DNA of 61,833 nt, filler included, from Nemertoderma westbladi (taxonomy: Eukaryota; Animalia; Xenacoelomorpha): assembly GCA_032718475.1 (NCBI GenBank). It is 3 parts of 3 records of this genome, joined end to end, with 100 filler letters (N's around TTAATTAATTAA, not from the genome) between each part and the next. Parts side by side here need not be neighbours in the genome. Positions count along the whole stretch, not along the records: positions 1 to 18,414 come from JAUCBJ010006700.1; 2 more parts are not named here. One strand, 5' to 3'. Under the pieces are notes generated by a model. That model did no database searches, had not been told where the DNA came from, and was given only the letters and a program-made list of their open reading frames with translations. Positions 4,170 to 52,749 of this stretch are shown piece after piece. The first letter of the stretch is position 1. Each line of letters begins with the position of its first letter. A program made the translations under genes and the position numbers.

Positions 4170-4699
4170 TTTTAAAAGACAAAATGCGTAAAACATATCA
4201 CATGAAATTAATTTTTTCTAGAATGCCCTTATGTATTATATTAGGCCTATATAATGTATTATTATTTATTATTGCTAGCTAGCTATATTTATTTTCTTTT
4301 GAATTTGACCTTGACTTTGACTCGGTAGTGTAAACGTGGTCTTAAAATTTTTGAAATTTTTCAATTAAATTATCATGATATCTAGTAAAATTTATGGTAG
4401 CTAATAAATAATAAAAGCAATGATTAAAGTAATTTCAACAAGAAATTTTTTTTTTTAATTTTATATTTTTATTGTTTCTCTAGCTAATAAAAAGTACTAG
4501 CTAACACAAAATCAAAATTTCTAGCTACAATCTTACTGTCAAAATGTCAAATGTTCTAGAATAAAAACCTCATGATAAAAGCTATTTTTCAACAGAAAAA
4601 ATTGGACTTCTGGATTTCTCTCACAAAAAAACCGCTTTATCTAATACTGTTTAATTTAATTTGAATATATTTATAAAAACCTTTAAAAAGGATTGTCCC

Positions 4700-5075
4700 A
4701 TACAATACAATATTCCATTGGAGCCACTAAAATTCAAAATGACCTCTATTGGACACTGTTCATAAAGGGCCACCAAAATATGAAATGGCTCTTACAAGAC
4801 ATTGTCCATTAGAGCCACTTAAATATGAAATATATTTCATATATATTAGGCAATTTTCCCTTAAAGCCATTCAAATCTGAAATGGCCCATATTGGATAGT
4901 GTCGCTTGGAGCCACTCAACTATAATGTGGCCCGATATTAGCCAATTTTTATCAAACGCCTTTGAAAAGGCAATGGCCCATGCAAGACCATGTTCCATTT
5001 GAGCCAAAAGTTCAAAATGGCCTTAATTAGTCACTGTTCATAAAGGGCCACTAAAAAATATAATGGTTCTTCCAA
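4700..5075. repeat. Degenerate ~45 bp tandem repeat
   Basis: (G/A)(A/G)GCCACT..AAA....AAATGGCC motif at roughly 45 bp spacing. Confidence 0.55.
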
Positions 5076-5267
5076 GCAGGAGATAACTTCCAATAAACTT
5101 TAATTAGATTTAAAAATGTATAATTAATACTGTGTACCAGTGTACCTGTTAATAAATTTCACTTATATTCGATATAGTACATGATTGAAATGTATAAATG
5201 AGCAACCATAAAATCCTTTCTTCACAAACCGAACGCTGATAAGTTGACATAATGTAACAAAATTACA

Positions 5268-5408: not shown

Positions 5409-6610
5409 AATAGTTATTCGATTTAATTAATACGGGATAAAATTCACATTATATTTAATAGGCCTATACTGTAGATAATTGTTACATTAGGGTAAGAGGC
5501 AAAACGTCTACATTTATGTCTCCAATATATGAATTACTGGTGGGGGATGGAATTCGTAGGGGTCGTAAGATGTATTTAGGCTAGTCTATAAACTAATCCC
5601 CCACCAATGACAAAATGTTAATAATGAAGTGTATAGTACGCGAAATAGTCATAAGTTATCCTTCCTAGAAGTACCGAACGGTCATACATTATTTCTTAAA
5701 AAAGCACAAATTTTAATCGCTTGTCAGTGAGAATTTATTAAAACCTGTTGTTATTTGCAGTATTGTTATTTACAATTTAACATATTTTGTTTGCACAAGT
5801 TTCGATCTTCAAACGGCTGAGACATCCAAATAGTGGCGCAAATTGACCATTAGTGAAAAGGTATTGTTTATTGTTTTGGGTAGAAAACACCGCCACTAAT
5901 GTTTGAAATTTAAATAAATTAATTTTTTAAATCATCTAAAAAACACATATTTTGTGTTTCCGGTCACTTTGCGCCATTAGCTCGAGAAATCACATCCGCG
6001 TTTTTGACTGTCGGTCATAAGTGATAATAATTATCTATAACGAAAGACTTAAAATCGTCTAAAAACTACTTATTGTACAACTCATAATCATAAATTACAC
6101 AAAAGTAAATTGTATGCGTTATTGTAGATATATATATTTTTTAAAATATCTGCAAAGGCATTTTTGGCTGTAGAATTAAATTGATAATAAATACTATTGT
6201 TTACCGCTAGGGGTGCAAGTTAAATTCATAAGAACTAAAGGCAATTTCCTTGTAATTGTTTATTTTGGGCCATTATGCCTAGATTGGGCCATTTTGTTCT
6301 AGGTGGGCCATATTTGCCCTAAGAGGACGTGTACCTTTTGGGCCATCGTAGTAGGATTAGGGCCATTGCTCCAAGCCCAAGGCCATTTAAGGGCCATTGG
6401 ACCTTTAAAAGGTGGCCCTAATAGTGGGAAAGCTTATATATATATATATAAACTTGTCAGTCTACTGACTTACAATCATTGAAAGCATACTACTAAGCTT
6501 CAGTAATTAACTTATTCAGTACTGCAGTAGGTGTTAAGCACCAAATCTTAAAAACTAAAAAAAACATTCTCTTTACCGGTATCAAACTGTCCATACACTA
6601 ATGTGTATCT

Positions 6611-6630
6611 CTTACACTACCCCCCCACCA
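6611..6630 (-). promoter_or_regulatory. Polypurine tract and start of the 3' LTR of the Gypsy element
   Basis: The minus strand reads TGGTGGGGGGGTAG|TGTAAG. The LTR begins with TG at 6616; its distal end could not be fixed. Confidence 0.7.
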
Positions 6631-7477
6631 GTAGCGGAGCGTCTTGTAGGTTATATGACTTTATTTTAGGACGAAGGTTAAACTTAACAGTTTTCTTTTT
6701 TCGTTTCTTATAATCGTTTAGTGCTAAATCAAATGCCTTTTTGTATCCCTGAGTTGTTCGGTTATCAATATTTTGTTCAATTGGATTGAAGAGTTTTATG
6801 TTGTTCTCTGGAACAAATCCAATGCGATTAGACCCGTAATAGTGGACAGGAATCTTAGGTATAGATGAGCATTGTTTGTTTTGTAAAGATGGTATTACTA
6901 ATCCAGGCCACGTTGGATATCCATCTTCTTTAGCCATTACAACAAGTCCTGGTTTGAACGTATTTTCGCCGTATTTTCTTGTTGTCATTACAGGTTCTTT
7001 GTTGTTTTTCATAGGTTTGATTTGTATATGTGAGTTATTTGTAGTTGATTTCTCATCATTGTTTGATTTCTCATCATTGTTTTGGATGAAAGCTGGTTTG
7101 GTTCGGTCTATCGAAATCTTTTGAGTCCTTCCTTTAATTTCAACTGTTACAGTTTTTTCATCGCGTTCTAGAACAACATATGGACCAGTATATCGATCAC
7201 TGAGTGAAGATTTGACGCGTTCATTTCTAATCCAAATGTTATTTGCAGTTTCAAGTGATTTTGGGATATATGTTTTTTTATTGAATTGTCTCTCTGGGGC
7301 TCTATAGGAATCCATAGTTTTAAATAAATTATTCATATAGTCAGGAAGACTCTTTTGTTCATTTGTTTCGGTTGGCGCAAAAAATTGCTGGGGTAGATCG
7401 ATTGTACCACCATATACCATTTGTGTTGCAGTATATCCATCAGGAGCAATACTATTGCGTAATCCAAGTAATACCAT
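6617..7477 (-). mobile_element. Ty3/Gypsy pol 3' fragment: integrase C-terminal region with GPY/F module fused in frame to a PWWP domain
   Basis: MVLLGLR...MVYGGTIDLPQQFF (end of integrase core) and IWIRNERVKSSLSDRYTGPYVVL...ISIDRTKPAF (GPY/F module). Then FKPGLVVMAKEDGYPTWPG...KIPVHYYGSNRIGFV (PWWP, ~6715-6958). The ORF runs into the polypurine tract. Confidence 0.85.
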
Positions 7478-7650
7478 CGCAACTCCTTTAACAGATTTGA
7501 CTCGTTTTGTAGATAAAACAAACAAACTTAAACCTTTAGAATGGAATGATACAGCTGAGAAAGCCTTCTTTGATTTGAAAGAAATGTTAAAAAACTCAGT
7601 TACACTGGCATTTCCTGATTCAACTGCAAAATTAGAACTAACAACTGATT
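7476..7650 (+). pseudogene. Gypsy RT connection / RNase H-start fragment, inverted relative to the adjacent integrase
   Basis: IATPLTDLTR...LEWNDTAEKAFFDLKEMLKNSVTLAFPDSTAKLELTTD matches the typical Gypsy pattern just before TDAS. Confidence 0.8.
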
Positions 7651-7694: not shown

Positions 7695-7816
7695 AGTAGT
7701 AGAGGAAGAGGGCTCCCCCACGTAGCCCTCCCTAGCTTGGTCTATAGTCCTCCGAGATATCTCCCATAGACCAAGCTAGGGAGGGCTACGTGGGGGAGGC
7801 CTCTTCCTCTACTACT
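7695..7816. mobile_element. Short palindromic MITE / hairpin
   Basis: AGTAGTAGAGGAAGAGGGCTCCCCCACGTAGCCCTCCCTAGCTTGGTCTAT and its near-perfect reverse complement flank a ~20 nt loop. Confidence 0.8.
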
Positions 7817-8350
7817 AGCATAGTGAGTGAGTAAAGTCCTACGTTTGTTTCCTTTGCAATACGTGATTTTTTTTTATTAAATTGTTGTTTTTTTCCACGA
7901 TATGAGATATCTGGCATATATTTTCATATATTTATGAAATAGAAAGTACAGAGTCTCGATGGAATCCGAGTTTGTTTCAAACTGTTTCAGACATTTAATA
8001 ATTAGCTAATTAATAAATAAATTAATAATTAGCTAACAACTGCCAGATAATTAACATTTTGAAAATATTTATAAAAAATCTTGTTAGTATAAAAATTGAC
8101 GGTGTGTTGAGAAGAAACTGGCACTTGCAGATTAGGGGGTCCCCTATTAGCCACTAGTGTAGTGCGGGAAAACTGGCTAGTAGTATAGTGTAAAACAAGG
8201 TTTAACGGGCATTTAAAAAGAAGTTGATTTATTAATGGGTTTTATATGAAAGGAGTGGAAAATAAGTACAATTTAATAAAACAAATATTTATTTTTTATA
8301 ATTAATTACTATAGCTAGCTGGCAGATATAAAAAAATAATAAAAACTGCG

Positions 8351-9209
8351 ACCCAAAGGTACGTAATGTACTGCACTCACCCAAAGGTACGTAAGGTACT
8401 GCACTCACCCAAAGGTGCGTAATGTACTGCACTCACCCAAATGTACATAAGGTACTGCACTCACCCAAAGGTACGTAAGGTACTGCACTCACCCAAATGT
8501 ACGTAAGGTACTGCACTCACCCAAAGGTACGTAAGGTACTGCACTCACCCAAAGGTACGTAAGGTACTACACTCACCCAAATGTACATAAGGTACTGCAC
8601 TCACCCAAAGGTACGTAAGGTACTGCACTCACCCAAAGGTACGTGAGGTACTACACTCACCCAAATGTACGTAAGGTACTGCACTCACCCAAAGGTACGT
8701 AAGGTACTGCACTCACCCAAATGTACGTAAGGTACTGCACTCACCCAAAGGTACGTAAGGTACTGCACTCACCCAAAGGTACGTAATGTACTGCTCTCAC
8801 CCAAAGGTACGTAATGTACTGCACTCACCCAAAGGTGCGTAATGTACTGCACTCAACCAAATGTACATAAGGTACTGCACTCACCCAAAGGTACGTAAGG
8901 TACTGCACTCACCCAAAGGTACGTAAGGTACTGCACTCACACAAAGGTACGTAATGTACTGCACTCACCCAAAGGTGCGAAATGTACTACACTCACCCAA
9001 AGGTACGTAAGGTACTGCACTCACCCAAAGGTACGTAAGGTACTGCACTCACCCAAAGGTACGTAAGGTACTGCACTCACCCAAAGGTACGTAAGGTACT
9101 GCACTCACCCAAAGGTCATAAGGTACTGCACTCACCCAAAGGTACGTAAGGTACTGCACTCACCCAAATGTACGTAAGGTACTGCACTCACCCAAAGGTA
9201 CGTAATGTA
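8351..9209. repeat. 28 bp minisatellite, ~30 copies
   Basis: Unit ACCCAAAGGTACGTAAGGTACTGCACTC. Confidence 0.95.
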
Positions 9210-9740: not shown

Positions 9741-9977
9741 AACTGGTCTCCCATAACCGGGTCTCCCATCTCCGGTCTCCGTTGTGTACTCACCCTTAGA
9801 GAACACACTTATACATATCGTTTAGTAATATAAAACTATATTGCTGTTATTAAAGAAAATTGTGAATAAATATAAAACCAGTTTATATAATTGTAAAGTA
9901 ATCATCTAAAGCTGTAAAAATAATATTATAATATAATCACTTAAAATTTAAAAATATATATCAAGAGTTTTAACATC

Positions 9978-10700
9978 AAATTTATTGGCACAAACTTACA
10001 GTAGCGTTAGTACAAATTTATTGGCACAAACTTACAGTAGCGTTAGTACAAATTTATTGGCACAAACTTACAGTAGCGTTAGTACAAATTTATCGGCACA
10101 AACTTACAGTAGCGTTAGTACAAATTTATTGGCACAAACTTACAGTAGCGTTAGTACAAATTTATTGGCACAAACTTACAGTAGCGTTAGTACGAATTTA
10201 TTGGCACAAACTTACAGTAGCGTTAGTACAAATTTATTGGCACAAACTTACAGTAGCGTTAGTACAAATTTATCGGCACAAACTTACAGTAGCGTTAGTA
10301 CAAATTTATCGGCACAAACTTACAGTAGCGTTAGTACAAATTTATTGGCACAAACTTACAGTAGCGTTAGTACGAATTTATTGGCACAAACTTACAGTAG
10401 CGTTAGTACAAATTTATCGGCACAAACTTACAGTAGCGTTAGTACAAATTTATCGGCACAAACTTACAGTAGCGTTAGTACAAATTTATTGGCACAAACT
10501 TACAGTAGCGTTAGTACGAATTTATTGGCACAAACTTACAGTAGCGTTAGTACAAATTTATCGGCACAAACTTACAGTAGCGTTAGTACAAATTTATCGG
10601 CACAAACTTACAGTAGCGTTAGTACAAATTTATTGGCACAAACTTACAGTAGCGTTAGTACGAATTTATTGGCACAAACTTACAGTAGCGTTAGTACAAA
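9978..10700. repeat. 36 bp minisatellite, ~20 copies
   Basis: Unit AAATTTAT(T/C)GGCACAAACTTACAGTAGCGTTAGTAC. Confidence 0.95.
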
Positions 10701-10779
10701 ATTATAATATTCATTATCCAGATAATAAAACTCACAAATGTATATAAAGGATGATGGATATATCTTAATGGGTCGTAGC

Positions 10780-14619: not shown

Positions 14620-15085
14620 AGAAAATAAGTGACTGTAAAATTAAAGCAATGTAACGGGGAGTTCAATATGCACGGGGTGGTTCCAAAAAAACAATGTAAC
14701 GGGGTGGTTCAATGTGCACCTAAAATAAGTAGGTGACTGTAAAATAAAAACAATTTAACGGGGTAGTTCAAAAATAAGTAGGTGACTGTAAAATAAAAAC
14801 AATTTCACGGGGTAGTTCAAAAATAAGTAGGTGACTGTAAAATAAAAACAATTTAACGGGGTAGTTCAAAAATAAGTAGGTGACTGTAAAATAAAAACAA
14901 TTTCACGGGGTAGTTCAAAAATAAGTAGGTGACTGTAAAATAAAAACAATTTCACGGGGTAGTTCAAAAATAAGTAGGTTACTGTAAAATAAAAACAATT
15001 TCACGGGGTAGTTCAATATGCAACTAAAATAAGTAAGTGACTTTAAAATAAAAACAATTTAACGGGGTAGTTCAATATGCAACTA
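14620..15085. repeat. 49 bp tandem repeat in the Penelope 3' UTR
   Basis: AAATAAGTAGGTGACTGTAAAATAAAAACAATTT(C/A)ACGGGGTAGTTCAA with period 49 in 14775-14971 and diverged outer copies. Confidence 0.9.
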
Positions 15086-15160: not shown

Positions 15161-18100
15161 TTAAGTCTGTGGACGCTGCTTGTTCAAAGGAGGGTTGTAC
15201 AAGTGTATGTAGAGCGCTTCAGCACTGAGACGGTCCCAATCGCGCCTGTACTGCTTGAAGGCTGTGACAGTGTACTGTGGGCATTGCGCAAAGTGTTCAA
15301 GTAGATGGTCCTCCTGGCCAGTGCTAGGAGCGCCCTGGCGGTGCTGTCGCACATTGAATCGGTGGCCATTGAGGCGATTGTGCAGTTTCTGCTCGGTTTC
15401 GCCAATGTAGTATTGGTCCGGGTGTTGGGTGCAGGATAGGTAATATAAAATATTGTGAGACTTGCAGGTGAACGCTCCACCTACACGTTCACCCCAGGGA
15501 GTGGTTGTATTGTTCGCGATTTCTTTACACGTGCAGCACGAGCTCACATTGCAAGGGACGTTTCCACTGTGTGTCGGTTTTTCACGTTTCCTGATGAGCT
15601 TGTTTCCGAGTGTTGGAAGGTTGCGAGTCGTTAGTTTAAGGTCGATGCCGTAGGAGTCTAGGAGCCGCCTATACCGCAAAAGTAGCTGCTTAATGGAGGG
15701 TTGAAAGTGTAGTAATATAGGGAGATAGATTGGGTGTTTCTGATGGGGCGGTGGTGTGAGCTTGGTTGTATGGGTAGGTGGGTCCCAGAAGTGCAACGGG
15801 AGTAAAAAGTCCAGGGGGTAGCCTCTATCCGCGCATTGTTCAAGGTATTTAATGCACTGGTGTTGGTACGCCTGTAACGTGGAGGATAAACGACGGAACC
15901 GAGTGAGTTGGGCTTTAACGATAGACTGGAGTGTTTGTTTGTTGTGAAAACTGGTATAGTGGATGGGGAGTTTATTGGAAGTTGGTTTGGTGTAAACGGC
16001 GGTTTGTATAGCGTTGTTCCTATGTGCGATGGTGAGGTCGAGGTAATTAATTGAGGTGTTCGATGATTCCATGGTAAACTGGATGGCCGGGTCGTTGTAT
16101 AATTCTAGGGATGCGCGGTTGTAACGGTCTAGTAGGGTAGATAGTTGGTCCTGATCTACAATGCGGTCGCAGAGCAAGTAATGGTCGTCTACAAAGAAGG
16201 TAAAGAACACACAACTAATGAGGGTAACGCCAAGAACGTGACTATGTATTCGAGCTATACTAAGGATCGAATAGGAAACGCCATAGTTACTCCCCATCGC
16301 AGACCCTATCTTTTGAACGTAATAAGAATTTCGATAGCGGAAGTAATTGTGAGTTAGTAGGTATCGAAGTATGATCTCAAAGTGCTGTATGGTGAATGGG
16401 GAACGCACAGGCAGTGTTGAATCTTCCTTGAGGCATTGGAGTGTAGCTTGGATCCCCAAGTCATGAGGTATCGAGGTGAACATGTCCACCACATCCAGAG
16501 CAATGAATGTTACACCCGTCGAGCCAGTTCGTGTTGGGTGAGCCCTAGCAAAGTGCATGGAGCTCTCAATGTAGTTCGCTGACTGTTGTACGAGTGGTTG
16601 TAAATACCGGTTAAGTAGTTTACCTAAAGGTGTGAAAAATGCATTGGTGTTCGATATTATAGGACGGGCTTTTGGTATTAGGCCACCATTGAGTGAAGGA
16701 AGCCATTGTTCACGCGGTTTGTGGTCCTTTAGTGTGATAAAAGGATAGCCAATGTCAAATGTTGGGGGGAATAGGTGGGCTTTAATGTCATTATTAGAGC
16801 CGAGATCGAGTTTTGCGATAACTTTTCGGAGCTCAGCTCGAAATCGTGACGACGGATCCCTCTCCAATTTGCAATAAACGGCAGAGTCATCAAGAATGCG
16901 CTGTATAGCATGATGCTTATCAGCTTGGTCGACGATAATAATGTTGCCACTTTTGTCACCTTGTAAAAACGCTATCGAAGGGTTCTTGCTAAGTGTAACT
17001 AGCGCCGATCTCTGTGATCTGTTGAGATTGGGCTTGACCCTAGAGTTTAGCTGTTTAAGATTAGTGCAACTGACTGTGACATGTAGGTCCTCAATCAGCT
17101 GCTCGACCACAGCGTTCTCAGACCTGGGAGGAAGATAACGAGGGCGTCGGTAGAATGGAATATCATTAGGTGGGACACGAGGTGTGTCGCGTACGATGTG
17201 GGTTAAATCATGGTTAGGGATGTGGTTTAATCTGGATGAACGGCGAGTTTTCCTAAGCGAGCTTGCCGATGTTGAACGCGTGACAATGCATTGTGAAACC
17301 TCCACGATCTCCTCCACTTTATCAGCTTCCTCTTGTATCGTTTCGGCCGCGTTGGTGGGACTGGCAGTGAATAATCTTCGGCGTGATTTTCTCTGGCCCG
17401 GTGCAGTTGTTGGCGGCGGCACCGTTATAATTGTACGCGTCGGAAGTTCCGGCTGGGGGGGTAGGAACGAACGGTCCAGGTATGAGCACCCTAACCGGGG
17501 TTCGGGAGTTGCAGGTCCCGGTGCATTCCGACCACTCGGTACCGTATTATCCGAGTTTACATCGGTAATCTCGAATAGCTCCTTCTTAAGTTTGTTCCGG
17601 ATCTTTGCTGCTGCTGTGGTAATAGCAATATGCGCTTCCATTTGGTCTCTCACTGTAGCTGGTTTGCTTGGAATAAAATTGTAACCCAAGCCGAGGAGCT
17701 CAGTTTGCGTTTCCGTCAACTGCACAGTTGAAATGTTCACAACTGGAATAACTGAAGTTGTCTTCCGGAGCATTGCAGTTGTCGTACTTGTAGCAGTTGC
17801 CAAATCATTCTGAGTGGATATTTGATCACCGTTCTGTGATGCTCCAGTCGAGTCGGAATAGCGAAGTGGGAAAGGAACGCGTGGGATAGGGTGCGGGATA
17901 ACCGACATGGCCCGGTACCCCTGTTGGAAATCAAACTTGTAGCGGTGACGTTGGACAGTAACACTAAGCTCGCGTTGTTGCACCCGTGCGATATGGAATT
18001 CCAAGTAGTGTAGGGATATGAAGTTGTTGGTGTCGATGGAGTGTTGCTGGAGGCGACGTACGTGGTTAAAACATAAGTTCTCGGTTCGACATAACCTCCT

Positions 18101-18370
18101 GTACAAATTATCGATTTCTACTGATAGGATCCGCTTAACTAGCATCCTGTGGAGTAGTGGATAGTGTTCGAGAATGGCGGCAGTGCGTTGCATGATATAA
18201 AAGGGTGCCATAGTTCCTCTTTTGTATTCCTTAAGGTTGAAAATTTGGGCCTGAATTTTAACTTTGTCGATAGACAGTTTTAATGATTTGCGGACGTCAA
18301 TAGATGCCCCTGGATTTAAGTTCAGTTTTCTAATATTACGGAATGACGCCCGGCGTGGTGTGGTTGCCAT
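15161..18370 (-). CDS. Penelope-like polyprotein: RT, Cys-rich linker and GIY-YIG endonuclease
   Basis: GDKSG, RPIIS, ALDVVDMFTSIPH, GSAMGS, FFVDD and INYLDL (RT). CNVSSCCTC is the Neptune-type Cys motif. LYYLSC...YYIGET...RLNGHR is the GIY-YIG domain. Likely ATG at 18370 (MATTPRR). Confidence 0.93.
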   Translation of the reverse strand: MATTPRRASFRNIRKLNLNPGASIDVRKSLKLSIDKVKIQAQIFNLKEYKRGTMAPFYIMQRTAAILEHYPLLHRMLVKRILSVEIDNLYRRLCRTENLCFNHVRRLQQHSIDTNNFISLHYLEFHIARVQQRELSVTVQRHRYKFDFQQGYRAMSVIPHPIPRVPFPLRYSDSTGASQNGDQISTQNDLATATSTTTAMLRKTTSVIPVVNISTVQLTETQTELLGLGYNFIPSKPATVRDQMEAHIAITTAAAKIRNKLKKELFEITDVNSDNTVPSGRNAPGPATPEPRLGCSYLDRSFLPPQPELPTRTIITVPPPTTAPGQRKSRRRLFTASPTNAAETIQEEADKVEEIVEVSQCIVTRSTSASSLRKTRRSSRLNHIPNHDLTHIVRDTPRVPPNDIPFYRRPRYLPPRSENAVVEQLIEDLHVTVSCTNLKQLNSRVKPNLNRSQRSALVTLSKNPSIAFLQGDKSGNIIIVDQADKHHAIQRILDDSAVYCKLERDPSSRFRAELRKVIAKLDLGSNNDIKAHLFPPTFDIGYPFITLKDHKPREQWLPSLNGGLIPKARPIISNTNAFFTPLGKLLNRYLQPLVQQSANYIESSMHFARAHPTRTGSTGVTFIALDVVDMFTSIPHDLGIQATLQCLKEDSTLPVRSPFTIQHFEIILRYLLTHNYFRYRNSYYVQKIGSAMGSNYGVSYSILSIARIHSHVLGVTLISCVFFTFFVDDHYLLCDRIVDQDQLSTLLDRYNRASLELYNDPAIQFTMESSNTSINYLDLTIAHRNNAIQTAVYTKPTSNKLPIHYTSFHNKQTLQSIVKAQLTRFRRLSSTLQAYQHQCIKYLEQCADRGYPLDFLLPLHFWDPPTHTTKLTPPPHQKHPIYLPILLHFQPSIKQLLLRYRRLLDSYGIDLKLTTRNLPTLGNKLIRKREKPTHSGNVPCNVSSCCTCKEIANNTTTPWGERVGGAFTCKSHNILYYLSCTQHPDQYYIGETEQKLHNRLNGHRFNVRQHRQGAPSTGQEDHLLEHFAQCPQYTVTAFKQYRRDWDRLSAEALYIHLYNPPLNKQRPQT

Positions 18371-18414
18371 ATAAGTTTTTGAAAGGACGTAGGGCTTAAG
18401 GGGTCTTAACACCA

Positions 18415-18514
18415 NNNNNNNNNNNNNNNNNNNNNNNNNNNNNNNNNNNNNNNNNNNNTTAATTAATTAANNNNNNNNNNNNNNNNNNNNNNNNNNNNNN
18501 NNNNNNNNNNNNNN
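18415..18514. other. Artificial contig-joining linker
   Basis: N-run, TTAATTAATTAA (stops in all six frames), N-run; 100 bp in total. Confidence 0.97.
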
Positions 18515-19929: not shown

Positions 19930-22900
19930 ATGTCTGATACAAAGCAAAACCTGTCAGACAGTCTCCTAGATACAACCATCTGTGACCCAGACAGGAGTGT
20001 GGAACGTGTGAGACCGAAGTTCAACTCACCTCCTACTGTAAGAAAGATCATCCCTCCGGTAGTAATATCAGACCCTAGGCTGGTCCAACACCGTAGGTCT
20101 ATCATAGGCACTCGAGCTCAAGTCAAGCGAGACCAAGAAGCAGCGGAACAGCAGCAACATTCGAGCCGAGAACTTATTTCTCAGCGGTCCGACAGCTCCA
20201 ATAGTGCAGATACTGTAGAGCTGACACCCGAGTGCGGAGCAAAGATGGCGGATGCGGTTTATTCGGATTCCCTTCTCATCCATCCTGCAGCCGTACTCAC
20301 TAGGGTATTAATTGCGGTGGAGGAACACCAGATTGATTGGGCAAGAAGTAAGCGATCGACCAAGGATAGTTATGCGGGATATACGAGGGAAGAACTGAAG
20401 TCTATTGTCGAGTCGCAATGGAACTTCCCCGGACCCGGACTCCCGTTTGACTTATCAGAAGCTGCCTGGGAAGACATATACAGGATGGGAGTAACAAAAG
20501 AAACCATCGATCCAGCTGTATGGAAGAGGTCAGCAGCCGGATACATACAGGGATTCTTCAGCTCCATGGAGCGATTAGAGGAACAATTGTTTAGACAACC
20601 ACAAGGACCTTAAGAGCAGGGAGAGCTGCTTTATCAAGTTAGAGAAAGAATTCTAAGAATCAGACTAATCTTATCTGCCTTTGAGGAGGCTTCGAAAAGA
20701 AGACAAGACACGTCGTTGCAAGTTGCCGTAAAGACTTGGTTACAGCGGGTGAGCCTCCAAGTTCAAAGAACTGCCCCGTGGAAATCTCAGTTGGATGAGC
20801 GCTCAACCCTTGGAGAATCAACAGACGCTACCTTTTCCCAAGTGGAAAGTGAAGCGACAGCAGAGAAACCGCATAAGAGGGATGCTATTGACATCTATCT
20901 GTCAGACTATCAACGCTTTGTAGGTGATGAAGAGTTGAGGAGAAGGCTGGAGGGGCTTAGCCCTAATAGTGAAGGAGCCAAGCTCGTGTTGGACGCAATC
21001 GATGCGGATATGAGAGCTGCGAACCAAGCTAAATTTGATGAACGCCTCCGCATCGCTAGAGTCCAAGAAGAACAAGTAAAGAAAAAACGTATAGAAGACA
21101 GAAAGATAGCAGCAGCGGCAGCAGCAGAGGCAGAAGCAGAAAGAAAAGTGGCAGAAGTGGAAAGAAAAGCGGCAGAGGCAGCGGCAGAGGCAAAAGTGGC
21201 AGCGGCAGAGGCAAAAGTGGCAGCGGCAGAATCAGAAAGAAAAGCGGCAGCGGCAGCGGCAGCAGTAGAAGCGGAAAGAAAGCGAGCAGTGGCAGAAGCA
21301 GAACGAAGAGCATCTGAAGAGACCACCCAACTAGAGTTGGAAAATATTCAAGAGAATCAAGACTGCATAAATAAACAGTTAACAGCTAGTCAAATGCAGA
21401 TGATGAGTCGATCTACTCCCAAAAGACAGGGATATACATCATCTGAGGAAGGCGATACCACCGATACTGAAGGCGGAGGAAATAGATCTCGTCTAAGCAG
21501 ACGTAGAAGAATATCCCACTGTCAGAAATTGCCTGATTTGCCCCCAGCTGTTAGAAGGCAACTAACTAACACAAACTTAGGTAGTACAGAACCCACAGAC
21601 CAAATAATTAAAATAGAAAGACTCCCTACTATAGTAGATGAGCCTGAAATAATTAGGCCTGTTCTCGAAGCCACCCCTTCGGTGATAGAGACACCTGTAC
21701 TCCCTGAACCTGCCTCTAGATTCCATCTGCACAGCACTAAGCTACCTGTGCCTCACAGAACCACCCTTGAAAATGTTCATGTCCTGGACTCCGAGCGAAA
21801 TATTAATGATTTGTCACCCATTGTCCCTCGTCCGCCCGCTACAACGTTGGCGCCTCCCGCTTCGGCGGTCGAGTGGGTAGATGAGGGACGACGGGAAATG
21901 GGTCTCCTGCTCGGGCAGCTGAGGGAACACCGTTCCCGCTCCTCTCAGCAAGTCCAGGAGATGGAGGGGACTGTGCAGCAGTTAAAGGGAACAATTAGAG
22001 AGAGTAGGTTAGAGTTGCAAGAAGTGCAGCAAAGTATCGCGTTAGAACGCGATAAATTAGTAAATACACAAAAGGGTATACCACCACCCCCTGTAACAAT
22101 GTGTCAACCTGTTAGGTCTGAAGTATTTCATGCGCAAGGTGGGGAGCCTACACGCATCTATACTGCTAGCGAAGTGGAAACTCCTATAGTAAACCCTATT
22201 AAGGGTAATTATAAACCTGTTGACAATGATATCCCATATAGACTTGATAATAATCCGAGAAATTTATATACCGATAACTCGATATTAAATAACACGATGG
22301 CCCAAGAAAGTTTTACGCGTCAAATGGCTAGAACCGAAGCCCGTCAAGCAGTAAAGGTGGGAGAGATCGTCAAGTTCAATGGAGATGAGATGAAATGGTT
22401 ACCTTTTAATGAATATTATAAAGATAACATACAGAACTCTGTGCTATCTAACAGAGAGAAACTTAGATTCCTCATCGAGTGTTTGGAAGGATCTCCCAAG
22501 TTAATGGCGTTAAAGTTTATTGGACATCCAGATGGATTAAGACAAGTTTGGGATACACTAAACATCAGGTATGGTAATAGGAATAACATAGCTAGGTATT
22601 TGTATGCGAAATTAATGGCGCCCCGAAAGTTTCTTAGCAGCGGGATTATAGAGTTTTCCGACGAGATTCAGGAGATCTGTAGACAACTAGATTGGTTAGG
22701 TAAGTCTCATGAATACCAGAATTCTATGGTTGTAGAAGCCTTAGCATCTACTTTGCCCAAGGGTGGAGTGGGTACACGCTGGGACAAGAAAGTGTTATAT
22801 ATGATGGAACAACAACGAAGAGACCCTACCATGGCTGATCTCATGTCATTTTTAGATGTAGAGGTAAAATTACAGCTCCTAAAGCAGTCCAGAGAGAAGA

Positions 22901-24945
22901 CACTGGAAAATAAGGTAAGTGAGAAACCCGTTTCTAGGAGAAAGGTAATACCAGTATGTTATGCAGACGACGGCGAAAGCCAGGCTTCTCAAGAGGAAGA
23001 CAGCGGGAAAGACACTGAAAGATCTTACTATGACAACAAAGCGACTAAGGACGTAAGTAAATTCAAGTCTCGAACCAATTACAGGAGAGAACAGGTAAGA
23101 AAAACTCCTCCTACGTCTCCTAAGAGAATTCATGTAAGAAAGCCCGAGGAAAGAACGAGTGTGCACAATGTTACCCAAAGTAAGGTAAGTAACATCAAAC
23201 CAAAATGTGTGCTGTGTGACGGGCCCCACCGTTTAAATGCGTGCGATGAATTCCTGAGGAAATCACTAAAGGACAGACGTGAGGTCATGTGGGATAAGCG
23301 GTTGTGTTATAATTGCCTCAGACGAGGACACCAACGGCGAACCTGTTATTCCGACGCAAGGTGTGCAAAGTGCGGCGTAAAACATCATATCTTGTTGCAC
23401 ACTGAATTCGATCGAAACAGCCCGAGTCAGGTAAGTGAGTCCGAACTACATGTCCAATTCAGTGATGTGAACGACACTGACCAAAGTTCTGAGATGGAAG
23501 GATTCTATACGGACGAATTCTCCGACGAAAACGAATCCTGTTACCTGATAAATACTGCAGTGTATCGAGCACTTACGTATGAAAAGGACACCGACAGTGA
23601 GCTCCCCCTAACTACTTCTGACCGACAACCATCTTGGAAAGCACCAACTTCCAATGTAGGAATCCGAGAATTTCCTGTAGTACAGTTGAGGGTCCACGGA
23701 CCTAAAAGGAGTTATATAGTGAATGCCCTCCATGACTCCGGTAGCACAGGAACATTTATCGACAAAGAACTAGCCGAAGACATCTTTGCTGGACAACCCA
23801 AGTTCCGAACTAAGTTAAACATGTCAGGAATTATGCAGGTTTGGAAATCTACAGTAATAACGGATTATTATGTAGGTGCGTTGTCCACCCCCCAGGATGA
23901 ACTAGGAGAACACAGCATAAGGTCAGTAAAAATGGTGGCGATAAAGAACTTCGCTACCAGCCAAGTAGAACCGTATAACTGGGATGAGGACGATTCCACC
24001 CAGCAGCTTAATATACCTAGATTCAACACAGATTACCCTGGAGTGCAAATACTCATCGGTCAAAATGCGCATGAGGCGCTGGAGACATTGGAGAAACGGC
24101 CTGCTCAACCGCAACCACTACAAGCCTATGCGGGAAGAACTAGAGTGGGTTGGTACTTTACTGGCCCTTCCCGTAGAACTCTCATGGAAAGATTACCAAA
24201 AGATCAGGTATATCAAGTAAGTGAATGGGAAGCGGAGAGCAGTGAGGTAGACGACCCAACTGAGAGAACACCATACTCCTCAGATAATGATGATATTAAC
24301 TCCAATGTAGATCAATGGAGACATTGCCCCGAGACGATTAATCTAGCCGACATCGCCTCCAGAGGAGCAACTTCTCAAGAACTGACAGATACTCCAGACT
24401 GGTTAGGTGGACCCGACTTCCTAAGTAAAGAAGATGAATGGTCTCCCCATCTTACCACGGCTGAGATTAGACAAGCCAAGGGAGCGGAGAAAGTCAAACC
24501 TAAAACCCGGACGAGTAAATCAAGGTTATTTAAACCCGTGATAGATCTGTCTGTATTACACATTGCCAGGGAAGACGCTGTGGATCTAAACTCCCCCACC
24601 GCGAACCGATCTGTTGTGGAGATCAGAGAGAGAGACTGGAGATCTGGAACACCAGACGTCTCGCCGGGACTCTCACCTCTCCTGCCGGGAGCGATGGACC
24701 ACTATAGATCCTGGAATCGGCTTTGTAAGGCCGTCGTGTATTTGAAGCGATGTTTCTATCGTCACTATTCCAGGACGAAGAGGAAACCTGGAATTGTCTT
24801 CGAGACACAGCAGCTCAATCGCCCAGTTGGTCGTTTATGTTTACTGGAACGAGACCGAGAACTGTCCGGAAACTATGGAAGGCAAGATACTCTTCCCACG
24901 ACCACCTCCCTAATCCAACAAACATCTAGGGACTCCCCAGCTTAG
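19930..24945 (+). mobile_element. BEL/Pao LTR retrotransposon gag-protease reading frame lacking RT and integrase; one in-frame stop at 20611-20613
   Basis: DUF1759-type capsid region (KFNGDEMKWLPF...LSNREKLRFL). Three Zn knuckles (CVLCDGPHRLNAC, CYNCLRRGHQRRTC, CAKCGVKHHILLH). Protease ALHDSGSTGTFI. Pao RNase H tail QWRHCPETINLADIASRG...WLGGPDFL. No YVDD and no integrase core. Confidence 0.9.
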
Positions 24946-26089
24946 TAGCGTATGGAGTGGGTGTGTGACCATATTATTTTATATTCTTATTATTTTATAT
25001 TTATGTATGTATTATTATGTAATTTTATTATAATCGTTTTCTTTAATTTTATTTAGTAGGATGTTATTTTAGCGATTATTTAGTAGATTAGTGCAATATA
25101 TTAGTGTTTATTACTTAATTACTTATATATTATATATTTAGTGCGACGGCGAGAAATAATTCTTTTTCTCCTTCCTTACTGTCCGTATTACATTACAAAT
25201 ACGTAACTACAGTAAGATGAAATGTCCGTACTTATTAAAGTACAATAAAGCTCCTACTATATTCAAGTATTATTGGTAAGTAGAGTATTAGGAATGCAAA
25301 ATTCAGATCCTCGTGTCTCGGCTAAACCAAGCTCTGGGTAGACCTTGGAAACGACTTGCCTCTTCTCACTGACATTGCTTCGTGCGATATTGCTCTCATA
25401 CCGTATATTAAATAATACATATAGTAGCGTGATGTCTCTTTAACAGTAGCGTATAACGCAAAATAAATCTGTTAAACCCTTTGACCATCTGCAATTCTAG
25501 TCGATTAAGATATCGCGGCACCCACCGATATACTTGAAAGACAAAATTCTAGAATCAGTGGTTAACGTCCCCAGACAAGTTCTGGAATAAACTGGTGCCC
25601 ATCCTAAATGTTAATTATTAATATTTATAAAATCTGTCAAATTTCAGATCCTTTAAAATTCTAGTCGATTAAGATATCGTAGCACTTACCGATATTCTTA
25701 AAAAGACCAATTTCCTAGAATCAAGGATCCTAGTCCCCAGACATGTTCTGGAATAAAATTGTGTCTATTTAATATTAAATAATAAAATTTACGGGAATAA
25801 ATTTAAATTCATGTTTTAATGAATTTGATAAATTGTTATTTTTATACAATTTATAACATTCCCAAAATTCCATTAATTAATAGATCATGGGAGCGGAGAT
25901 TCACCCTATTAAGTGTATTAGTGTGCGAGAATCTCCAATATATAGTCAATAGCTGATAAAATTCATAAAATCATGTATAAAGAGGAATATTGACAATTAA
26001 AAAATTACTATTAAATAGCGAGTCGCAATTGTGAAAGTAGCCCTAACTCTCCAGTAAGAACCTGAAGTAAATCTAAAATTTTCATTACT

Positions 26090-28753
26090 ACATGTATGGA
26101 ATGTTTTCCCAATCAATTATACATACATGTTTATGACTGACGGTATAATTCGTCGCTCGACGATAGATCATTTTTTGGTTAGCTTTAACATTATGAATGC
26201 GTGCGTAGAGGCAGATGTTATACATCATGGTGCTAATCTGTCATGTCATAGCCCAGTTTATTTTAAATTTCATGTTGATGATTTAAATTTAAATGCGGTA
26301 CCGGATGTTACGCCACTGAAATGCTGTTATGATAAGGCGAGTCCGGATCAGAAGCTTAATTTCCAGAGTGAGTTATCTGATCGCCTTAGCAATATTGAGT
26401 TAGATTCACAGTGCTTAAATTGTAATAATATATTATGCTCCGTGCCGGAACATCGCCTTTTCATTGAAAAATATACATTAACAATTTTAGAGGCTATTAA
26501 CGATGCTGCACAAAGTTTACCGCACACAGGTGGCGGGAGTAGTTCCTCTTCGAAACGTTCTCCACCAGTTCCTGGATGGAACGAACAGGTTAAACAATTC
26601 AGGATAGACGCGATGTTCTGGCACGATGTTTGGAAAGCTGCTGGTAGTCCCACCGGCAGTAGTAGTTATCTTTTTCACATGCGACGTACGAGCCGCGCAC
26701 AGTATCAGTACGCAGTTCGTAGGCTTAAAAGGTCACAGGACTCGATTAAGCGGGATAAACTGTTACACGCTTGTTTGAGTGGTAATATTAATATTTTTAA
26801 TGAAATTAAACAATTTAGAGGTAACCAGCGTTTCCAATCAAATTCTATTAATGGTGTAACTAATCCTACTGAAATTTCAAATATTTTTGCAAATATTTAT
26901 TCGACTTTATATAATCAACATTATATTGTGGATATTTCTATTGGTGATATCGAAAATAAATTACTAGACACATTGCGCAATCTGAATGATAATAATGATT
27001 TTAGCACTAATTATAGCAACTGTGCAGGTTTACGTGAAATGTTATCACCTCGTATTTTACACGAAGCCTTGTTAAGATTAAAAAATAACAAGTCCGATGT
27101 GAGTTACAGTTTTGATTCAGGCGCTTTAATTCACGGTGGTATTTTACTTGAGCAACATTTGTCAACTTTATTTAATGCTTTTCTATCACACGGTATTGTT
27201 TCTAAATGTCTACTGTACATTTCCTTTATTCCGATTGTAAAAAGTAAATTGGGTGACCTATCGGCAGACAGTAATTATAGAGCGATAGCTATATCGTCGC
27301 TAATCTTAAAGGTGTTTGAATGGGTAATGATAATTAGTGAAGGTGATAAGTTGAAGTTTGATGATTTACAATTCGGTTTTCGTACTAATTCTAGTACGGT
27401 CATGTGCACATGGTCTGCGTCTGAAGTAATTAATTATTATCTGAAGCACTCAACTCCTGTTTATGGCTGCCTTTTAGATTTTACTAAAGCTTTTGACCTT
27501 ATCGAATGGCCTAAACTATTTCTAGAATTACTGAAAAAAGGTTTTTCTGTTCTCTATTTAAGGTGTCTTATTTTTATTTACCGTAATCAGTTATGTGCAG
27601 TGAAATGGTTAGGGTGTCTCTCATCACAATTTTTGATTTCAAACGGCGTCCGACAAGGGTCTGTTTGCTCGCCAATACTCTTCTGTATTGTTTTGAATAT
27701 ACTTATTAAATCCTTACGTAATTGTAAAGTAGGATGTTATATTGGTAGCCAGTATTTTGGGGTTCTAGCCTACGCTGATGATGTGCTTTTGCTTTGCCCT
27801 TCTGTGATAGGTTTACAATATATGATAGACATTTGTAAAAAATTTTGTAGTGCATTTAATTTACGTCTGAGTACCAATGCTGATGTAGCTAAATGTAAGT
27901 GCAAATGCATCCCTTTTGGTTTTTCATGGAATCCCCCACAGCGGAAACTTTTTATTAATAATATTTTGCTGCCTTGGGTAAAAGATGCAATTCATCTAGG
28001 AATTACTCTAGATTTCAAGTGCACTCTAAATGTCGATATTCTACGTAAAAGAGGTCAGTTTGTTGGAAAGCTGAATAATATCAGACAAGAATTCGGTTTT
28101 GCACATCCAAGTAATGTTACGAAATTACAGAAATTATATGCTATGTCGTTCTACGGTAGCTGTACTTGGAACCTTTGGTCAGACGAATGTCGTCGAATTT
28201 TAACTAGTTGGAATACGAATGTACGAATTTTATGTCGCCTTCCTTTTAACGCGCACAGATTTATTGTTCAGGATGTTGTGGGTTTTTTGCACCCTTGGGT
28301 GATACTCTGTAAAAATTTTGTATCTTTTTGTAACTCAATTTGTAAATCAGATAGGCTTTGCGTCAGATTTCTTGCGAATTTATTTACTACTGATTGTCGA
28401 AGTATTAGCGGTAATAATCTTAGATGTATTGCGAATGATTGTAGGGTAGTAGATATTAAGGAATTGACACCATCTGTAGTAGTGAATAAATTAAAGTATG
28501 TTCATACACCTGCAGGAGAAAATTGGAAAATTGAAACCTGCAGGGATTTAATAGATTCGTTAGTTGGATATTCGGAAATACCTGGTTTTTCAAGTTCGGA
28601 AATTAAGGATTTATTAGACTTTATTTCTTCGTCGTAGTTGATTTCTCGTCTGTGTATGCATTATGTGTATCTATGTACGTACCACTGTATTAATTTGTGC
28701 TAAAGTGTACCATATAATTGTAACTATGTGTACGAATAAAAGAAATAATAATA
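26090..28753 (+). mobile_element. 5'-truncated LINE (APE end plus RT, probably RTE-X-like); ORF 26127-28637
   Basis: STIDHF...SCHSPV (end of APE), QFGFR, LLDFTKAFD, GVRQGSVCSPILF and LAYADD. The 3' end has AATAAA followed by (AAT)n. Clade assignment is tentative. Confidence 0.88.
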
Positions 28754-41450: not shown

Positions 41451-41792
41451 ATAAGTGATTACATTAAGAAGTTTTTCGTCTAAAAGTTGTAATACGAAGC
41501 TCTTAATCAGGACTTGTGCTGTGATTGGCTTTTAGCTTTTACACTAATTGGTTTACAAAATAAATCTTTGCGGTTTAATTCTCATATCATTAACATGTTT
41601 ATGCTGTTGCAGTTTGTGAACACATGGTGTGTTGTATGATGACCTTGCGTTGCGTTTCTTATGGTGTTGTCAATAATCAATAATTATTATTAATCTTTCT
41701 AGATAGATTAACAACAGTGTAACGGTCCGGTACCTAAATACAGTAGCTACTGGGGACTGGGCTATACTAGTAGACCGTTAGCCTAAATAATA

Positions 41793-44702
41793 ATGAGATT
41801 ACTTCGTTTTGTTACTCAAACTCCACCCCGTTTATTACCGGTACCTCGGGGGCAGTGCGGGACCCTGAGACTTCCATGGCGGTTAGTACCTGTACAAAAA
41901 GTCTCTTTAACATCCAAATATTCTACCGCAATTAATGGCCTGGTGCCTTCGACAATCGTTCTGTATAAGAAACTCATTTCCAATCCTTTAACGGCGATAA
42001 ACCTTAGCAACAGATACCCATATAGACTTTACTCAGATGACGGGAAAAGCAATAACAATAGCGATCCATTTGAAGGGGGTGAAGATGGTGACGACGGTGA
42101 GGCCAATGATGATGGGGATGATGAAGGATTTAGCGACGATCTACCTCCCCCTAGTAACGGAGCAAATAATCCCCCTAACTCCCGGATGCCAGTTGAATTA
42201 GACGAGGGATCCCGACTGCTGACTCCCCTCTCAATCCCCGAGAACTTCCCCAACGTGCCTCTCATCCCGATCTCCAGACACCCCCTGTTCCCGCACTTTA
42301 ACAAACAGATCGAGGTGACCGATAAGACCCTATGCGAGCTGTTGCGACGTAAGGTCCGTCTGCGACAACCGTACGCCGCGCTCTTCCTTCGCACTGACGA
42401 CGGCGTGGGGGAGTTGGTTACCGAGTTGGACGAGGTACACCCGGTAGGAACCTTCGTACACATACAGACGATGCAGGACTTGGGCGATCGATTGCGTATG
42501 ATAGTTACGGGGCACCGTAGAATCCGTATTAACTCACCACTGGAAGCCGCTGATGTAGATAAAATGACCTTCGATCCAGGGCATGAAGACGAACTTCCCA
42601 TCTCTCTAATATGGAAGGAAATCGAAACTGAAAGTTCTTTTCCAGTAGTTATGGTTAACACTACCAATGTCAAACACGAGGCTTTCGAACACACTGATTT
42701 AGAATTAAAGGCTTTAACAGCGGAGGTTATTAAAACTATCAGGGATATAATATCTTTGAACCCATTATACCGCGACTCTCTTGTCTATATGATGGACCCC
42801 AACCTCAGGGTGGGCGACAACCCGGTATATCTGGGCGATCTGGGCGCCGCCCTCACATCGGCGTCGTCGGCTGAGCAGCAGGAAGTTCTGGAGGAGTTGG
42901 ATATTAAGAGTCGTCTTCGGTTGAGTTTACATCTATTAAAGAAAGAGTATGAGTTAGGTAAGTTGCAGAAACATCTTGGCAAAGAAGTGGAGGAGAAAGT
43001 TAAACAGGCGCATCGTAAGTACATGTTGCAGGAGCAGTTGAGGATAATAAAACGTGAGTTAGGTCTAGAGAAGGATGATAAAGATGCCATACACGATAAG
43101 TTTAAGGATAGGTTGAAGGAGTTGGTTGTTCCTGAGTACGTTATGGAGGTTATTGATGAGGAGTTGAGTAAGTTAGGTTACCTAGATAACCATTCTTCGG
43201 AGTTCAATGTGACTCGTAACTATCTGGATTGGTTGACTCAGTTGCCATGGGGTAAGTACTCGCCGGACAACCTGGACATCGGGCGGGCTCGTAGGATTCT
43301 AGAGGAGGATCACTACGGGATGGACGATGTTAAAGAGCGAGTTTTAGAGTTTATAGCTGTTAGTCAGTTGAGGGGGTCCACCCAGGGGAAGATACTGTGT
43401 TTCTACGGCGCCCCGGGGGTCGGTAAGACTTCTATAGCGCGGTCTATAGCGCGCGCTTTGAGTCGGGAGTATTTTAGGTTCTCTGTCGGAGGGATGACTG
43501 ATGTAGCCGAGATTAAGGGACATAGACGCACTTACGTAGGGGCGATGCCCGGAAAGATAATACAGTGTTTAAAGAAGTTGAAAACCTCCAATCCGTTGGT
43601 TTTGATAGACGAAGTTGATAAGATCGGGAAGGGTTACCAAGGCGATCCGGCTTCAGCTCTTCTAGAATTACTGGATCCAGAACAGAACGCCAACTTCCTC
43701 GACCATTACCTGGACGTCGCTGTCGATGTCTCTAAGGTCTTGTTTATCTGTACGGCTAACGTAACGGAGACGATACCGGAGCCGTTACGAGACCGAATGG
43801 AGATGATTGACGTTTCCGGGTACGTGGCAGAGGAGAAGCTGGCTATAGCCGAGCGGTACCTCGTACCGCAGGCGCGGTTGGACTGCGGTATAGCCGAGGG
43901 CCGAGTCCAGCTGTCCAACGCGGCCGTAAGTCGGTTGATCAAACAGTATTGCAGAGAGAGCGGCGTGCGAAACCTCCAGAAACACATCGAGAAAGTTCTA
44001 AGGAAAGCCGCGTTTAAGTTGGTTGATAACCCCGATTTGGAATCACTTGTAGTAGACGAAGATAACCTGGTGGAGTTGGTTGGGAAACCTTTGTTTACTA
44101 GTGAGCGGATGTACGCGGACACGCCTCCAGGGGTCGTTATGGGGTTGGCTTGGACTGCGATGGGCGGGTCGACTCTATACGTTGAGTCGACGTTGAAACA
44201 CTCGGCGTCGTCTACCGAGACTACCGGCTCGTTGGAGTTGACCGGTCGTCTGGGCGACGTTATGAAGGAGTCCGCGCACATCGCCTACACGTACGCTCGC
44301 TCTTTCCTCGCGGGGGTCCAACCGGACAACGCGACGCTAAGGGGCGCCCCCATCCACGTTCACGTACCGGAAGGGGCGACCCCCAAGGACGGGCCCAGCG
44401 CCGGGGTCACCATAGTGACGGCGCTGTTGTCGTTGGCTACGGGGGTCGCGGTCCCCGGCGACTTGGCTATGACCGGTGAAGTCTCCCTCACCGGGAAGGT
44501 GCTACCGGTGGGCGGGATTAAAGAGAAGGTAATCGCGGCTAAACGCGCCGGTGTAACGCGGATTATAATTCCCGCGGAGAACCGCAAGGATTACGGTGAT
44601 CTAGCTGAGTTCATCACCAGCGGTGTTCAGGTACATTTCTGTTCTCATTATTCCGAATTCTTCCCGGTTATCTTTCCATCGCTTTTTACGACCTCATCTT
44701 AA
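41793..44702 (+). CDS. LONP1: Mitochondrial Lon protease, single coding exon
   Basis: Basic N-terminal presequence, Lon N-domain, Walker A GAPGVGKT, Walker B VLIDEVD, catalytic Ser in PKDGPSAG and Lys in GGIKEK. AATAAA at ~44828. Confidence 0.97.
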
Positions 44703-51647: not shown

Positions 51648-52472
51648 AACAAGTAGGCAAGCTTACGAAGTAATAGAGCAAACAATTAGGCAAGCTAACG
51701 AATAATAGAGCAAACAAGTAGGCAAGCTAACGAAGTAATAGAGCAAACAATTAGGCAAGCTAACGAAGTAATAGAGCAAACAAGTGGGCAAGCTTACGAA
51801 GTAATAGAGCAAACAAGTGGGCAAGCTTACGAAGTAATAGAGCAAACAATTAGGCAAGCTAACGAAGTAATAGAGCAAACAAGTAGGCAAGCTAACGAAG
51901 TAATAGAGCAAACAAGTAGGCAAGCTAACGAAGTAATAGAGCAAACAAGTGGGCAAGCTTACGAAGTAATAGAGCAAACAAGTGGGCAAGCTTACGAAGT
52001 AATAGAGCAAACAAGTAGGCAAGCTAACGAAGTAATAGAGCAAACAAGTAGGCAAGCTAACGAAGTAATAGAGCAAACAAGTAGGCAAGCTAACGAAGTA
52101 ATAGAGCAAACAAGTAGGCAAGCTAACGAAGTAATAGAGCAAACAAGTAGGCAAGCTAACGATGTAATAGAGCAAACAAGTGGGCAAGCTAACGAAGTAA
52201 TAGAGCAAACAAGTAGGCAAGCTAACGAAGTAATAGAGCAAACAAGTAGGCAAGCTAACGAAGTAATAGAGCAAACAAGTAGGCAAGCTAACGATGTAAT
52301 AGAGCAAACAAGTGGGCAAGCTAACGAAGTAATAGAGCAAACAAGTAGGCAAGCTAACGAAGTAATAGAGCAAACAAGTGGGCAAGCTTACGAAGTAATA
52401 GAGCAAACAAGTAGGCAAGCTAACGAAGTAATAGAGCAAACAAGTAGGCAAGCTAACGAAGTAATAGAGCAA
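51648..52472. repeat. 33 bp minisatellite, ~25 copies
   Basis: Unit AACAAGTAGGCAAGCTAACGAAGTAATAGAGCA. Confidence 0.95.
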
Positions 52473-52749
52473 AGAAGTACTCGGATTACAGCTTTCTCGG
52501 GTTAACCGTTCTCGGGTTAGCCGAGTTTGAGTCTCGTGCTGCGCGATGGCCCCACGAACGTAACGTGTAGTATTGGATACTGAAATATTATTAAATTAAT
52601 TTACCATGTCAATGCCTCAACAAAATTATTTAGCTAATTATAAACAATCAAATCACCATCCAATTCAGGAACTCAAGCCAATCATTTTGCGAAATAAAGA
52701 ATAAGCAAGCTGTCTTATTAGTCTGGCTCCTTACTCTGCCTGTCCTATA

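Follow-up and report, generated by a model that had tools for sequence, protein, structure and literature searches.

A lineage of Ty3/Gypsy integrases with a PWWP domain in the C-terminal tail, a possible chromatin tether encoded in cis

Introduction

How animal LTR retrotransposons choose their integration sites is an open question, and a stretch of 61,833 nucleotides of Nemertoderma westbladi DNA (hereafter the window) raises it in a specific form: does a Gypsy integrase encoded there carry a PWWP chromatin reader of its own, and for what might such a domain be used? Chromoviruses are Ty3/Gypsy elements with a chromodomain at the integrase C-terminus, for example MAGGY (Gao et al. 2008, via PMC6673714, 10.1101/2021.11.30.470311), and the retrotransposon readers on record in the main texts of these two sources include chromodomains, PHD fingers and an MBD. 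The main text of the second, a survey, counts 823 fusions, mostly PHD and Chromo "and others" (10.1101/2021.11.30.470311). The LEDGF model of lentiviral integration is supported in the available text of PMC13582839, and for fly LTR elements, which favour active genes, a LEDGF-like route has been proposed without data, according to the available text of PMC10018349. The first-pass annotation of the window had read one of its frames as a Gypsy integrase fused to a LEDGF/HDGF-like PWWP domain, and had proposed that integration is thereby directed in cis to H3K36-methylated chromatin.

Results

Structure and state of the window copy

The element is encoded on the minus strand, where positions 7477-6617 form a single open frame (P0001, 286 amino acids counted from the first Met; Table 1). 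Every checkable detail of the first-pass annotation was found, namely the GPY/F module, the linker, the PWWP domain, the KKTVKF tail and a stop within the polypurine tract before the TG of the LTR, and all of its quoted motifs could be located (GPY 7186-7178, FKPG 6958-6947, YPTW 6919-6908, YYGS 6841-6830 and KKTVKF 6697-6680). Residues 1-138 are 33-36% identical to the C-termini of the Gypsy integrases P0002-P0005, through the GPY/F module, and the 151 codons 3' of the integrase were open in none of 20,000 base shuffles. The polypurine tract (6629-6617) ends with the stop codon (6619-6617), and the TG of the LTR follows directly at 6616; a GPY/F module, a polypurine tract and a TG-starting 3' LTR, by which we recognise a Ty3/Gypsy element, are therefore all present. 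The far end of the LTR at position 6251 is only a candidate, because the evidence for it is a 5-bp inverted repeat and an AATAAA close by; in relatives, the LTR measures 169-528 bp.

The window copy is a dead fragment, truncated at its 5' end and rearranged with an inverted scrap of RT/RNase H. This scrap lies head-to-head with the integrase piece, has the same base composition, and finds the sister element P0021 as its second-best match. Gag, RT, the integrase catalytic core and the 5' LTR of this copy are absent from the window, as are a second copy of the LTR and any further Gypsy piece besides the RT/RNase H scrap. The copy lies downstream of the nearest recognised gene, which is acyl-CoA synthetase-like, about 3.4 kb from its stop codon. 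The copy is thus not visibly inside a gene body, and a single insertion is uninformative on targeting either way.

Other parts of the window were also annotated. Just past the inverted RT piece lies a near-perfect hairpin of 122 nt (7695-7816; DNA folding z -15.8), probably a small foldback element, and a GGGCCA-rich stretch at about 4600-5150 (4729-5076) weakly resembles the distal half of the candidate LTR, a similarity that is not significant (4 of 200 shuffles scored as high). A laminin (55072-59985, 1637 codons) and a Lon protease (41787-44702, 971 codons) are single uninterrupted frames, and the host genes in the window look unusually intron-poor, amid many repeats, so that targeting of gene bodies would probably be costly, which speaks against such a bias.

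Table 1. Features of the window copy and of other repeats in the window.
Feature	Position	Strand	Basis
Integrase C-terminal region, aa 1-135, ending in a GPY/F SH3-like module	7073-7477	-	Identity of 33-36% with Gypsy Pol P0002-P0005 and of 39-45% with five relatives that bear a PWWP; beta-barrel in model
Asn/Lys-rich flexible linker, 42 residues, with in-frame 18-nt duplication	6965-7072	-	Sequence; pLDDT <50 for aa 132-171
PWWP domain, aa 172-259; cage Y187, W190, Y213; R218 at LEDGF E49 place	6701-6964	-	Pfam 39.7 bits, PDB matches, predicted fold
Basic C-terminal tail with xVxF motif native to these integrases	6620-6700	-	Strict motif in tails of PWWP-less relatives; P0018 tail
Polypurine tract, stop codon as last three bases	6617-6629	-	Sequence; ORF end likewise overlaps the tract in relatives L018 and L036
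3' LTR, 366 bp; start certain, far end (6251) candidate	6251-6616	-	TG after tract; 5-bp inverted ends, TATA-like run, AATAAA near end
Inverted 58-codon piece of RT/RNase H junction	7476-7649	+	Pfam RT_RNaseH_2 E 5.8e-6; tblastn
Tandem array, 28-base unit	8323-9126		
Tandem array, 36-base unit	9941-10744		
Tandem array, 49-base unit	14673-15064		
Penelope-like frame	15161-18466		By eye; no Pfam match
BEL/Pao-type gag	20614-24945		DUF1759
LINE RT	26058-28637		
LINE endonuclease	49120-50625		
Tandem array, 33-base unit	51670-52530		

Identity of the captured domain

The identification as a PWWP domain held under both a profile and a structural comparison. With Pfam PF00855, P0001 scored 39.7 bits (E 7e-10) against a curated cut-off of 25.6, and the top PDB sequence matches of its PWWP were the PWWP domains of LEDGF/PSIP1 and HRP2 (E 2.5e-5), with 21 identities to LEDGF across 77 residues. 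An AlphaFold model built on a 7-row alignment predicts a five-stranded barrel and a closing C-terminal helix for residues 171-260 (block-mean pLDDT 65-89), and the matches listed by Foldseek for this model were PWWP-containing structures (best E 3e-4, TM by target at most 0.74); a model from the single sequence reached a pLDDT of 39, and its fold search was not significant. The Chromo family was absent from Pfam scans of P0001 (E up to 1) and of the relatives scanned.

The resemblance to LEDGF/HDGF PWWP domains noted at first pass was borne out by the best single-domain matches of a six-member profile against the PDB, which were LEDGF (46.6 bits), HRP2/HRP3 (45-46 bits) and HDGF (42 bits), with NSD3 at 34 bits. 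NSD2 was top-scoring, but an NSD-type donor was set aside because two domains add up to this score (22.7 + 25.3 bits, versus 46.6 for LEDGF alone). As the term rests on profile scores, "LEDGF/HDGF-like" seems a fair description of the nearest match, not of orthology.

The domain lies within the native integrase tail

The PWWP domain lies inside the element and not in flanking host DNA, as the first-pass annotation had stated: it is located between the GPY/F module and the native tail, its GC3 is element-like, and relatives have the same insertion point. The C-terminus of related integrases is a short, variable tail whose basic xVxF-type motif is encoded immediately ahead of the polypurine tract. 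After exclusion of three loci (two lack the anchor motif and one is open-ended), the strict form [KR]x(0-1)VxF/W was present in 15 of 41 non-redundant PWWP-less tails from the 45 metagenome loci (L001-L045) and P0002-P0005, compared with a shuffle mean of 0.67 and a maximum of 5 in 1000 shuffles. For the window copy by itself, an xVxF-type motif arose in 2.2% of the shuffles of its tail, and the tail of the PWWP-less relative P0018 ends in a stretch near-identical to that of the window copy. Since the native tail motif follows the PWWP domain, the domain sits within the native tail.

Base composition was examined at third codon positions. GC3 is 23 of 85 codons in the PWWP and 42 of 185 in the remaining coding sequence of the element (Fisher p 0.45); in five host genes of the window it ranges from 0.48 to 0.86, which is different from the PWWP value (p 0.001 or less). 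On this basis we rejected a recent origin of the domain from host genes of the kind present in the window; an AT-rich donor is conceivable.

The tail motif also bears on a reading in which the PWWP has a role outside target choice, acting after or apart from integration, for instance by drawing element proteins to the element's own chromatin against silencing. RVxF is a phosphatase docking motif, and we take the [KR]x(0-1)VxF/W motif of the tail to resemble the RVxF motif by which PP1 is docked. We nevertheless consider such a role very doubtful, since the fusion site coincides exactly with that of known targeting domains and an effector domain is absent, even though the same alternative is proposed for CopiaMBD in the main text of PMC6673714.

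A lineage of integrase-PWWP elements

An HMMER search of 1.84 billion representative proteins gave 3255 matches, of which the best 150 were inspected. Among these are six further integrase-PWWP proteins, and the integrase-PWWP architecture is accordingly a feature of a lineage and not a one-off chimera. Five of them (P0006, P0009, P0010, P0012 and P0025) pass the PF00855 cut-off with 38-50 bits; the PWWP of the sixth, P0013, is degenerate and scores 16.5 bits with Pfam and 39.8 bits with a leave-one-out profile of the other six members. P0012 (1128 aa) contains protease-like, YIDD, DAS, HHCC, DDE and GPY motifs followed by the PWWP in one frame, and is an intact protease-RT-RNase H-integrase-PWWP Pol in Ty3/Gypsy order. 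Pfam was run on 20 of the best 150 proteins, and the family profile on all 150, on P0002-P0005 and on the 45 metagenome loci in six frames; no further PWWP member was found with this profile.

Across the seven members, identity is 32-54% in the integrase C-terminus and 15-45% in the PWWP (15-32% between the window PWWP and the other six). The linker varies from 27 to 69 residues while frame and domain persist, an xVxF/I-type motif follows the PWWP in all seven, and the frames are still open at an integrase divergence of more than one substitution per site. Two invariant alanines in the last PWWP helix, a basic residue where LEDGF has E49 and the insertion point are common features of the members. 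When 154 proteins were scored by integrase only, the five best matches of the window copy were all PWWP-bearing. We also note a natural series in the clade: P0056 lacks the domain and keeps the tail motif, and the cage is eroded in P0013 and P0025.

Other collections yielded no PWWP-bearing copy. Word-indexed protein searches returned four integrase-only matches, but no protein of similar length and no match for the PWWP alone. Scans of viral contigs contained no PWWP-bearing locus, nor did those of genome contigs, where one weak RT match of 43 residues was seen; one metagenome-contig scan was empty and another gave the 45 related loci, with a PWWP in none. From the ESM Atlas, the only matches were integrase-tail clusters at 0.80-0.81, with nothing beyond them, and the 50 matches listed from a viral fold library included no integrase-PWWP protein.

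These data bear on whether the PWWP is a functionless passenger or a one-off chimera with host DNA. The domain is missing in 144 of the best 150 relatives and in all 45 metagenome loci, it is lost or eroded in three clade members, and the window copy itself is rearranged, all of which would fit a passenger. Against this, in seven divergent elements it occupies the same place, after GPY/F and ahead of the native tail, its base composition matches the element, and the frames have remained open over the divergence given above. We regard this reading as largely refuted by the six further proteins and give it hardly any weight.

Phylogenetic placement

An integrase-only tree was calculated from 134 columns, with the PWWP excluded, and 63 rows comprising the window copy, 12 CHCC-bearing loci, and 50 proteins taken from 152 usable ones for their integrase score or because they belong to the family (102 were left out). 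The PWWP label requires 2 changes on this tree, versus 6.8 in shuffles, of which 0 of 500 were as low. The six other members and the PWWP-less P0056 form a supported group (99/82), which the window copy joins with weak support (87/26), and a PWWP-less group of P0021, P0047, P0018 and P0105 (98/86) is placed within the same 20-row branch. In an alignment of 548 RNase H-integrase columns, P0012 falls together with P0021 and P0105 (SH-aLRT 98). The simplest reading is a single gain and a single loss. It is conceivable that an ancestor of the window copy captured the domain a second time, since the PWWP of this copy is about as far from those of the other members as from LEDGF; the basic E49 place, the two invariant alanines and the same insertion point would favour one origin.

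CHCC Gag was found in 18 of the 45 related PWWP-less loci, CCHC Gag in none, and a tRNA-Trp primer site in 13. CHCC-bearing elements stand on both sides of the PWWP lineage at supported branches. In the available text of PMC2582038, CHCC Gag and a tRNA-Trp primer site are hallmarks of the CsRn1 clade (CsRn1, PwRn1, AgCR), which is described as being without a chromodomain. Because our tree contains neither a named reference nor an outgroup, we refer to the lineage as CsRn1-like rather than CsRn1. Two of the loci, L019 (34-180) and L027 (1047-1194), each have two CHCC motifs in Gag.

The methyl-lysine pocket is predicted to be kept but changed

The seven PWWP domains were mapped residue by residue onto LEDGF. 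The first-pass observation that the cage positions keep aromatic residues was confirmed: Y18, W21 and F44 of LEDGF correspond to Y187, W190 and Y213 in the window copy, five of the seven members have the full triad, with an aromatic residue also at the exposed Y18 position, and W21 is present in all seven; the cage is broken in P0013 and P0025. M15, H48 and E49 correspond to E184, N217 and R218. The M15 place holds a different residue in 7 of 7 members, and the E49 place an Arg or Lys in all five cage-intact members. With these aromatics retained and the M15 and E49 places altered, the methyl-lysine pocket is, judged by its residues, kept but changed. As for DNA binding, K14 is kept in 4 of 7 members, K16, K39 and K56 are mostly changed, and the K75 place, near which the alignment is less sure, is basic in five members and not in the window copy. 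In the latter, K14 and K39 are the only LEDGF DNA-binding places that are basic, and the K73-K75 patch is absent; net charge is basic in most members.

In LEDGF, methyl specificity requires M15, H48 and E49, and loss of M15 abolishes specificity and genomic enrichment, as reported in the available text of PMC3663649. These residues are central to a reading in which the PWWP and the basic tail hold the complex on nucleosomal or linker DNA without choosing a mark, which would give more efficiency or nuclear retention. Loss of the M15 and E49 equivalents predicts, on the same source (PMC3663649, available text), that specificity is gone and binding kept; in addition, most members are net basic, and the two members without the cage aromatics retain the fold. 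However, the cage aromatics, with the exposed Y18, are retained in five of seven very divergent members, and several of the DNA-contact lysines of LEDGF are changed, and we find such a mark-blind tether somewhat unlikely.

The same changes might also mean that the reader has been retuned to another mark or methyl state, such as H4K20 methylation or a repeat-associated mark, and, like chromoviruses, directs insertions to safe regions poor in genes. H4K20 methylation is read by some PWWP domains, and all five cage-intact members conserve the charge reversal at the E49 place. Elements are also rarely fused with readers of active chromatin, according to the main text of 10.1101/2021.11.30.470311. 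On the other hand, the nearest solved domains are H3K36me readers of the LEDGF/HDGF family and nothing points to a specific other mark, which makes a retuning of this kind improbable in our opinion.

Discussion

We propose that the PWWP domain is likely to act as a built-in chromatin tether, which would bias integration to methylated nucleosomes. Because the E49 place is Arg or Lys in the five cage-intact members, H3K36me2/3 is only the likeliest mark, and we put the probability of an H3K36me2/3-directed integration bias through the integrase PWWP at about 0.5. According to this model, a CsRn1-like element would have acquired a host PWWP exon of HDGF/LEDGF type in its variable integrase tail, in a single capture, and selection would then have maintained it. 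A flexible linker would attach a reader to every integrase subunit; the cage would contact the methyl-lysine, and the basic tail would contact DNA. A single LEDGF PWWP binds its peptide weakly (17 mM; PMC3663649, available text); since there are several integrase subunits per complex, avidity would offset the weak affinity of one PWWP, so that the multimeric intasome might achieve avid nucleosome binding. The fuller picture, that of an old and undescribed animal Gypsy lineage, which uses an HDGF/LEDGF-type PWWP to aim integration in cis at H3K36-methylated chromatin with a pocket retuned through a basic residue in place of E49, we hold tentatively, as possible at somewhat less than even odds. 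The domain is dispensable for the element, because the cage is broken in P0013 and P0025 and P0056, within the clade, is without a PWWP.

The first-pass annotation had known of no Gypsy clade with this architecture, and a full-text literature search, with Repbase, GyDB, InterPro and most subscription journals outside its scope, likewise found no paper on a PWWP-bearing retrotransposon. No fusion of a PWWP with an element is reported in the main texts of PMC6673714 and 10.1101/2021.11.30.470311, of which the supplementary tables of the latter may hold one; the supplements of PMC13524379 contain no PWWP, and PMC11244446, PMC10414810, PMC3978060, PMC6338049 and PMC3248453 are, in their available text, irrelevant or without a PWWP. 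The PWWP-bearing Gypsy integrases, a variant of reader-bearing integrases, therefore apparently form an undescribed lineage.

The lineage extends the readers captured by integrases (chromodomain, PHD, MBD) to a domain that lentiviruses hijack from the host. If the proposed bias is true, the lineage would be a natural, self-contained counterpart of the lentivirus-LEDGF pair and the first retrotransposon reader aimed at transcription-linked and not silent chromatin. The changed pocket may in addition reveal a new PWWP specificity, and a natural test is offered by the insertion sites, within the same genomes, of sister elements whose PWWP is intact, eroded or absent.

Compared with known systems, the lineage is most readily set beside the chromoviruses, in which a Royal-family reader likewise follows GPY/F in frame just before the polypurine tract; it differs in having a PWWP and not a chromodomain, in belonging to another Gypsy branch, and in a predicted mark other than H3K9 methylation. 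With the CsRn1 clade it shares GPY/F and the same tail motif, whereas CHCC Gag and the tRNA-Trp site are known from PWWP-less neighbours, and the PWWP of about 85 residues inserted in the integrase tail sets it apart. CopiaMBD and PHD-bearing retrotransposons have also captured a host reader of chromatin or DNA methylation into their polyprotein, as described in the main texts of PMC6673714 and 10.1101/2021.11.30.470311, but belong to another superfamily or carry another domain than the Gypsy integrase-PWWP elements. The lentiviral integrase tethers LEDGF/p75 (PSIP1) and HRP2 provide the best single-domain PWWP matches and are alike in their cage aromatics and in the proposed job; here, however, the element encodes the PWWP in cis, without an integrase-binding domain, and M15, H48, E49 and several DNA-binding lysines are changed. 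Tethering in cis and in trans would thus converge in these elements, which are built like chromoviruses and carry the domain recruited in trans by lentiviruses.
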